The notes: generated by a model from the sequence alone, not told the origin. A stretch of 64,000 bases of DNA from Patescibacteria group bacterium (GCA_041666325.1 JBAYHC010000001.1:59338-123337), one strand, 5' to 3'; positions 59,409 through 60,191 are shown, numbered from the stretch's first letter. A program made the numbers and translations.

Positions 59409-60191
59409 TTACGGCCGGAGTGTCCCAGCAAAAACCTGCCAAGCAAGAAGAGACTTGGCAACAAAGCTCAATACAATATAGGCACGTTCGCCATAGAGAT
59501 AATCACTCCAACGACCAATCTTTCGATACTGTAAATACTGATTTATGGCAAAGATATTGAAGAAAACGAATAAGGAAACAAAAATCCAGTAGACGAATGT
59601 TGGCGGATTATCCGCTGTGCCCGGACTGACAAGATAGAGAGTGATTGCAATCCATGGCCCAATACCAGCTATGCATCCAAATATAAACGCTGTCCAGTTG
59701 GTCTGTTGCTTACCCTGATCCTGTCGAAGGGCGTGATTGTGGAGTTCCATCATCCAGCCGAATAAGATCATGGTGGCATTCAAAAAGAAGACAACGATCA
59801 GCGTAGCCAAGTCATAGATGCCAACCAACATCGAGATAACTACAATCATCACTGATGAACTAAAGGCGTATTCAATCCATCTGGCGATATTTATGTGGTT
59901 TTTGAGATTGTTGTTGTACCATTGATTGATTCCTGGCAGCGAAATAACCAAATGGGCCAGTGCCGACATAATCAAGAATGACGCAACCAACGGACCCAGC
60001 TTTACACTGAACAATTCACCGAGTTCTGGCGCTAGACTCTGGGTCGCTTGATTAAAACGCAAAAAGGATGACGTAATCGGCACCTTCAAATCAGTAGAAA
60101 CTGACAGCATCACAATCCCAGAAACAAAATGCAAAATTGAGGCAAATATATTCCATCGGCGCAGTTGCACAAATTGAGACCCTTCTGTCAT
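59409..60191 (-). CDS. heliorhodopsin (7-TM retinal protein, inverted topology)
   Basis: 260 aa; strong collinear match to heliorhodopsin 48C12 blocks: RWIEYAFSSSVMIVVIS, NATMILFGWMMEL, FGCIAGIGPWIAITLYLVSPGT, GERAYIVLSFVAKSLLAWQVFAGTL (Schiff-base Lys in TM7, counter-ion Glu in TM3). Confidence 0.85.
   Translation of the reverse strand: MTEGSQFVQLRRWNIFASILHFVSGIVMLSVSTDLKVPITSSFLRFNQATQSLAPELGELFSVKLGPLVASFLIMSALAHLVISLPGINQWYNNNLKNHINIARWIEYAFSSSVMIVVISMLVGIYDLATLIVVFFLNATMILFGWMMELHNHALRQDQGKQQTNWTAFIFGCIAGIGPWIAITLYLVSPGTADNPPTFVYWIFVSLFVFFNIFAINQYLQYRKIGRWSDYLYGERAYIVLSFVAKSLLAWQVFAGTLRP

Follow-up and report, generated by a model that had tools for sequence, protein, structure and literature searches.

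What does a heliorhodopsin do in a bacterium of reduced genome, where does its retinal come from, and which protein does it act upon? These questions are raised by a 64,000-nucleotide stretch of a Patescibacteria group bacterium (GCA_041666325.1, JBAYHC010000001.1:59338-123337; hereafter the window), which carries on its minus strand a 260-residue open-reading frame (ORF) at 59409..60191, with its ATG at 60191 and its stop at 59409. A first-pass annotation, made from the sequence alone, had read this ORF as a heliorhodopsin (HeR) gene in which the lysine of transmembrane helix (TM) 7 and the glutamate of TM3 are intact. It had also placed the gene in a small-genome member of the Patescibacteria, which is borne out by the title of the GenBank protein record, by the 687-kb length of the contig and by the nearest SecY and HeR relatives.

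Identity and fold of the protein

The ORF matches the Pfam family Heliorhodopsin (PF18761) from end to end, with residues 10-258 aligned to profile positions 1-242 of 242 (E = 6.7e-101, 337.1 bits, cut-off 26.7), and it scores 337.1 bits against the NCBIfam equivalog model NF038020 (heliorhodopsin HeR, cut-off 100). Heliorhodopsins were the sole matches in a sequence search of the PDB, among them TaHeR (6is6, E = 1.3e-73) and 48C12 (6su3, E = 1.7e-61), and the TM7 lysine is kept. A match of this strength to the family cannot be chance, and judged by the two profiles and the 48C12 alignment the gene is a genuine, intact and full-length heliorhodopsin whose family assignment is secure. Reading the sequence directly, we also find a Shine-Dalgarno element, AAGGAGG, at 60195..60201 (minus strand), 3 nt before the ATG.

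The protein shares 46% identity with 48C12 over the aligned region and ~49% with TaHeR. The 48C12 residues that it keeps are H21 (H23 in 48C12), H80, N101, R104, E107, Y108, N138, E149, P179 (P172), Q218 (Q213), S242 (S237) and K246 (K241), and none of them varies among 35 aligned relatives sharing 61-78% identity, in which 74 columns are invariant, including each chromophore-contact residue tested. The motifs on which the first-pass annotation had leaned are all present: RWIEY brings E107 into register with E107 of 48C12, SFVAK brings K246 into register with K241 of 48C12 and K238 of TaHeR, and the segment FGCIAGIGPW occupies residues 171-180. The Schiff-base lysine stands in an SxxxK motif in TM7 (S242-F-V-A-K246), and both S242 and K246 are invariant among the 35 relatives. 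The key codons, all on the minus strand, lie at 60129-60131 (H21), 59952-59954 (H80), 59871-59873 (E107), 59466-59468 (S242) and 59454-59456 (K246).

An AlphaFold2 (AF2) model built from the alignment of the 35 relatives (pLDDT 85.6, pTM 0.83) has seven long helices and a beta-hairpin between TM1 and TM2 (strands 36-47 and 52-64). In Foldseek this model superposes on TaHeR (6is6) with a TM-score of 0.90 and a root-mean-square deviation of 2.0 Å and on 48C12 with a TM-score of 0.84, whereas type-1 rhodopsins reach at most 0.62. With helix limits taken from hydropathy and the AF2 model, an N-in orientation puts nine Lys and Arg residues on cytoplasmic loops and three on the opposite side, so that by the positive-inside rule the predicted topology is inverted, with a cytoplasmic N-terminus, in agreement with the HeR type. 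A recent preprint (10.1101/2025.11.27.691015) names F162, C166, G169, F206, A210 and N207 as the residues of the lateral fenestration of 48C12, and the corresponding set in our protein (F169, C173, G176, F211, A215 and N212) is identical.

The gene is already known and annotated, as an identical protein stands in GenBank (MFA5926826.1 and MFA6531356.1, both titled "MAG: heliorhodopsin HeR [Patescibacteria group bacterium]"; MAG, metagenome-assembled genome) and heliorhodopsins of the candidate phyla radiation (CPR) have been published. The identical sequence occurs in at least three independent samples and also on contig k141_115123 (687172 bp) of European Nucleotide Archive entry ERZ27249449, of which contig the window is ~9%, as the reverse complement of about 336.8-400.8 kb. 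Roughly 8000 or more homologues are found at E ≤ 1e-20, many of them labelled Patescibacteria. The identification is thus correct but ordinary: it extends by one protein an annotated Patescibacteria HeR clade of many members, and leaves unchanged the open question of what most heliorhodopsins do.

Retinal supply, partners and a candidate function

By analogy with characterised relatives (TaHeR, 48C12, AbHeR, TfHeR and OcHeR), we favour, with moderate confidence, a reading in which this HeR would be a slow-cycling photosensor that regulates a partner protein by contact and uses scavenged retinal. All-trans retinal would be bound at K246 in TM7 as a protonated Schiff base, with E107 as the sole counter-ion and H21 and H80 as an internal proton-accepting group. 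Light would isomerise the retinal, the Schiff-base proton would shift internally to the E107/His group with no ion being transported, and a long-lived intermediate would alter the cytoplasmic loops, a change that may modulate the partner through direct contact. Such action has precedents, since heliorhodopsins bind and regulate partners in the pairs AbHeR-glutamine synthetase, TfHeR-photolyase and OcHeR-OmrDE, the last an ABC exporter (PMC9529153, PMC9769723, PMC11109279). The earlier statement that heliorhodopsin function is still unresolved is therefore partly outdated.

The step in which no ion is transported separates this sensor from a light-activated proton transporter like V2HeR3 of giant viruses. 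One HeR subfamily does transport protons (PMC9448325), and CPR bacteria have few routes to a proton gradient. For the present protein we nevertheless consider proton transport very unlikely, as the transporting viral subfamily is reported to lack the fenestration motif, which is present here. The closest characterised proteins are also TaHeR and 48C12, for which transport reportedly went undetected in the work of Pushkarev in 2018 and Shihoya in 2019.

For the retinal itself, Pfam labels covered nearly all window genes, which include cell-wall, glycolytic, tRNA-synthetase and ribosomal genes, and among these genes and those of the 7 kb past the window's end (~70 kb inspected, on a contig at least 687 kb long) there is no BCD/blh, RPE65, phytoene synthase, phytoene desaturase or lycopene cyclase gene (families BCD, RPE65, SQS_PSY, Amino_oxidase and Lycopene_cycl). 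The window is accordingly free of blh- and crt-type genes, as the first-pass annotation had said. Its further step, that this implies exogenous retinal, does not follow from 64 kb of such a contig and is plausible only through published reports that CPR bacteria with rhodopsins lack blh, because a window of ~9% of one contig cannot establish the absence of retinal genes from the genome. Retinal is nevertheless probably scavenged from outside, by analogy with rhodopsin-bearing Saccharibacteria without blh (Jaffe et al. 2022, PMC9296517) and with TaHeR, whose apoprotein binds external retinal fast and whose host is reported to lack retinal synthesis (PMC9296517), and because the fenestration residues are kept. 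External-retinal scavenging by CPR bacteria is not a new idea, having already been published.

The same fenestration residues bear on another use of light, in which an exogenous xanthophyll at the fenestration would work beside exogenous retinal as a second antenna and the inverted topology would serve access to external carotenoids. All of the fenestration and carotenoid-site residues of the preprint cited above are found in our protein, and CPR bacteria are, as a matter of general knowledge, single-membraned and dependent on host metabolites. Such a two-antenna light harvester is compatible with the sensor model, but we regard it as unlikely: carotenoid binding by HeR is in that preprint a matter of docking and sequence statistics and not of a measured complex, the use of the absorbed energy is unexplained, and the habitat appears dark.

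A contact-regulating photosensor calls for a partner, and the immediate candidate is the divergently transcribed gene at 60313..61074 (plus strand), which had been called a TIM-barrel isomerase-like gene. Its product alone scores 28 bits against PF01261, below the cut-off of 31.1, and a word-indexed search returned the protein itself only; exhaustive phmmer searching recovered 92 representatives of its family, 15 of them at E ≤ 1e-30, and PF01261 is matched by 23 of the 25 aligned members (best E = 2.7e-25), which bears out the superfamily. The family profile finds sugar-phosphate isomerase/epimerase-like barrels and endonuclease IV in the PDB. H75, H106, D162, H187 and H197 are invariant in the family and a Glu is conserved as well, a set that would fit a metal site. 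Since the homologues begin at query residue 12-13, translation probably starts from M14, at 60352. A single-sequence AF2 model of the protein (pLDDT 49.7) was too poor for use. Its adjacency to HeR is not conserved, because the closest homologue (41% identity) lies 330 kb from a HeR of 65% identity on one 971-kb contig of the same metagenome, and none of 80 other HeR loci has this TIM-barrel gene nearby. As a conserved HeR partner, which the first-pass annotation had left to be looked for among neighbouring genes, the TIM-barrel protein is ruled out.

The comparison took in 81 HeR loci, that of the window and 80 from other species, and tblastn of the TIM-barrel protein, of SecY, Adk and Map and of two further neighbours described below (the TasR-like protein and a 76-residue ORF, orf76) gave no match within 8 kb of HeR at any of the 80. 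De novo clustering of ORFs across the 81 loci ranked highest a MacB/LolD-like ABC ATPase with 17 loci, followed by an FtsX-like permease with 10 and a response-regulator-like protein with 8, all at varying offsets. There is no universal HeR partner across these loci, and in the other 80 none of our neighbours lies within 8 kb of HeR. Nine of the 30 closest loci place ABC-transporter genes at most four genes from HeR, two of the nine directly beside it, and in one relative from the same sample the genes for a heterodimeric ABC exporter lie as a pair 2.4-6 kb upstream of HeR. As raw counts, this enrichment is no more than suggestive; recurrent ABC transporters near CPR heliorhodopsins are in line with the published OcHeR-OmrDE pair.

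Several points weigh against the photosensor. The window holds no ABC transporter, and neither a glutamine synthetase nor a photolyase or MerR gene lies near this HeR, so that no partner can be named, the TIM-barrel neighbour is unlinked to HeR in every other genome examined, and the nearest two-component pair is 11.7 kb away, beyond the 10-kb range of Bulzu et al. The search for retinal genes covered only ~9% of the contig. The source also fits a light sensor poorly: the contig is carried by metagenome 3300037810 of the Joint Genome Institute, from groundwater well GW1 at a landfill in Southern Ontario (loci L081, L092 and L093), and no fewer than 19 of the 80 related loci bear titles of groundwater, leachate well or subsurface. 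We take such record titles to indicate habitats. The two-component genes themselves, a MASE3-PAS-HisKA-HATPase_c kinase at 45644..47677 and an OmpR-type regulator at 44605..45297 (both minus strand), form the sole signalling pair seen in the window.

The landfill well, the many related CPR heliorhodopsins with groundwater or subsurface titles and the lack of a retinal pathway among the window genes would suit a role independent of light, as a receptor or scaffold for host-derived retinal or carotenoid, as a protein acting without chromophore, or as a relic nearing loss. We think such a role quite unlikely. A ligand-sensing HeR has no known precedent, light is not strictly absent from wells and leachate systems, and cells in them may come from surface water. 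A relic in particular is unlikely because of the strong conservation across relatives (the 74 columns invariant across 35), and the identical sequence in at least three independent samples speaks against it as well. The groundwater or leachate origin of many CPR heliorhodopsins, ours among them, sits uneasily with a model of light sensing alone, and may help in deciding which samples to take for metatranscriptomics.

Genomic setting and neighbouring genes

In the public gene calls, which extend past the window's end, the order of genes is L6, L18, S5, L15, a 182-residue PaaX_M/Cas2-like protein, a 179-residue uncharacterised protein, a 444-residue protein, the TIM-barrel gene, HeR, a 76-residue ORF, SecY, Adk, Map, IF-1, S13, S11, S4, RpoA and L17. 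HeR thus lies within a 6.7-kb insertion between rplO (L15, TIGR01071, E = 1.3e-35) and secY, on the same strand as the ribosomal-protein operon. The downstream border of the insertion is secY itself (57319..58590, minus strand), identified by the Pfam SecY family (E = 1.1e-101) and by operon order. Three relatives with 69-74% SecY identity (loci L089, L090 and L091) carry different cargo upstream of secY: integrase-like (rve) and RRM-domain genes in one, a Peptidase_M3 gene in another, and in the third L15 followed by 3.6 kb with an acyltransferase and a 5'-nucleotidase. The rplO-secY junction, seen here in 57319-64000 of the window together with L081 4460-4942, is a variable insertion slot in the lineage, because each relative examined holds other cargo there. 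The closest heliorhodopsins (77-78% identity) are located elsewhere, with Amidase_3, SecG and SBP_bac_5 genes as neighbours. A place in the ribosomal operon as a conserved feature of HeR is ruled out by the differing cargo of the SecY relatives and by this other location; the placement is species-specific.

The HeR transcription unit appears self-contained. The opposite-strand TIM-barrel gene separates it from the genes upstream, and its 3' end is probably a terminator-like hairpin at 59006..59035 (minus strand; 12-bp stem, 7 G-C pairs and a T-run), found by consensus scan only. An Rfam scan of 58500-64000 at E-values up to 1 gave no match. Between the HeR stop and the hairpin sits orf46 (59122..59262, minus strand), a basic ORF of 46 residues rich in Lys and Arg (MQQKKNNQSSKKKTGDDIVHLGRGRKPYRVERGEHGEFKKVKGPAK), of uncertain status, with a strong ribosome-binding site of its own (AAGGAGGTG). 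The acidic orf76 (58725..58955, minus strand), between HeR and secY, is one of the publicly annotated genes. Neither has a Pfam match (nor, for orf76, an NCBIfam match), and neither has a relative in the 80 other HeR loci. If in such aquifer habitats HeR served chiefly to sense retinal or xanthophyll from a host, or as an alarm for light and oxygen at the surface, and worked with the TIM-barrel enzyme and the 46-residue peptide, these species-specific neighbours would make up a new HeR partner module; we find this decidedly doubtful.

The nearest SecY proteins share 73-76% identity and are labelled Patescibacteria, with Berkelbacteria at 69%, and the nearest heliorhodopsins share 70-78% and are labelled Patescibacteria or Berkelbacteria. 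HeR and SecY are 70% and 69% identical, respectively, to those of genome CAZVMH01, and both are 65% identical to those of the 971-kb contig. From these equal identities HeR appears to have been inherited vertically in a Berkelbacteria-like lineage, with local rearrangement. Recent horizontal transfer of HeR together with the neighbouring island is unsupported, since HeR divergence parallels SecY divergence and its GC content (0.436) is close to that of the window (0.446); the Tas locus alone is shifted (0.51). Five further HeR loci (L013, L017, L021, L042 and L055, 56-62% identity), one of them on a 668-kb contig, carry the title "uncultured Gammaproteobacteria bacterium". They group with CPR heliorhodopsins and are probably mislabelled MAGs; were they genuine, they would conflict with the reported absence of heliorhodopsins from diderm bacteria.

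Beyond the TIM-barrel gene, at 61100-63900, lies what had been called an IS110 island, a label that proved wrong. Its 444-residue protein (61912..63246, minus strand; WCT32_00605, "hypothetical protein" in GenBank) reaches only 18.6 bits over 34 residues against Transposase_20 (PF02371, cut-off 21.3) and has no match to DEDD_Tnp_IS110 (PF01548), and so falls short of both IS110 profiles. The TIGR-Tas system RNA-guided endonuclease model NF052498 matches residues 199-412 at E = 7.6e-23 with 81.6 bits, short of its cut-off of 100, PDB entry 9mty matches the protein at E = 1.8e-5, and the product can be described as TasR-like (TIGR-associated, with a Nop domain).

GC-richer non-coding DNA of ~600-800 nt lies on either side of the TasR-like gene, and repeat inspection found box-C/D-like units in both flanks. 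The downstream array (61230..61850, minus strand), a candidate stem-loop TIGR array of degenerate interspaced units, holds seven copies of YTGCRNNRATGC spaced 65-80 nt start to start except for one 171-nt gap, and several units are followed by (C)TGATTC, on the same strand as tas. Related degenerate units, GCAGAGATGC / GCGGAAACGC ... GCCGATGC, make up an upstream array at 63290..63720 (minus strand). Array spacers directed at the HeR/TIM-barrel region were considered and rejected, as k-mer matches between the two showed no enrichment over shuffles (at k = 10 there were 7 where 2.8 were expected and shuffles reached up to 13; at k = 12 there were none). Faure et al. 2025 report a TasR clade in CPR bacteria in which RuvC is inactive, the proteins have Nop insertions and the arrays are of the stem-loop type, and a 2026 preprint shows such proteins to act as RNA-guided repressors; from its matches, the 444-residue protein is probably a member of this kind. 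The locus is probably of more current interest than HeR, but its kind was already described in 2025-2026.

Just past the window's right end, between L15 and the TasR-like locus, the 182-residue PaaX_M "Cas2-like" protein (~64505-65053; L081 5139-5687, plus strand) matches PF20803 at E = 1.8e-18 and, weakly, the cas2 model TIGR01573 at E = 7.5e-5. Two further features were seen elsewhere in the window. The leucyl-tRNA synthetase (988 residues, 32368..35334, plus strand) carries at residues 415-520 a NUDIX domain (PF00293, E = 1.4e-12) that separates its editing domain from the second half of its catalytic core, an unusual insertion. Tandem paralogues of cofactor-independent phosphoglycerate mutase (Metalloenzyme and iPGM_N domains; 14141..15730 and 15714..17309, plus strand; 529 and 531 residues) adjoin a bifunctional-type PGI, a surprising redundancy for a reduced genome.

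Comparison with described heliorhodopsins

The partner-regulating heliorhodopsins AbHeR, TfHeR and OcHeR belong to the same family as ours, and no mode of action other than theirs has experimental support among prokaryotic heliorhodopsins. They differ in setting: none of the ten published neighbour groups adjoins the present gene, which has next to it an orphan-like TIM-barrel enzyme, a pair of small ORFs and the TasR-like locus.

The CPR heliorhodopsins of Chiriac et al. 2022 (PMC9166423), whose screen of 1326 CPR genomes gave 115 rhodopsins, 98 of them heliorhodopsins, share with ours the phylum-level group, the SFVAK motif (one of the three commonest TM7 motifs in that set) and the proposed sensing function in a reduced genome. 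Patescibacteria were likewise taken into the HeR context analysis of Bulzu et al. 2021. The proteins of Chiriac et al. are mostly from Saccharimonadia of lakes, whereas ours comes from a Berkelbacteria-like genome, a landfill groundwater well and an rplO-secY position.

TaHeR, from the Thermoplasmatales archaeon SG8-52-1 (PDB 6IS6 and 7U55), is the nearest solved relative, and its lysine, glutamate counter-ion and fenestration are as in our protein. Its host, by contrast, is archaeal, it has Tyr at the first fenestration position where ours and 48C12 have Phe, and the present protein has a TM4-TM5 loop six residues longer and a TM5-TM6 loop three residues longer. The founding member, 48C12 (PDB 6SU3 and 6UH3), which we take to come from an actinobacterial fosmid from Lake Kinneret, is less similar overall than TaHeR, yet all six of its fenestration residues are the same as in the heliorhodopsin described here.

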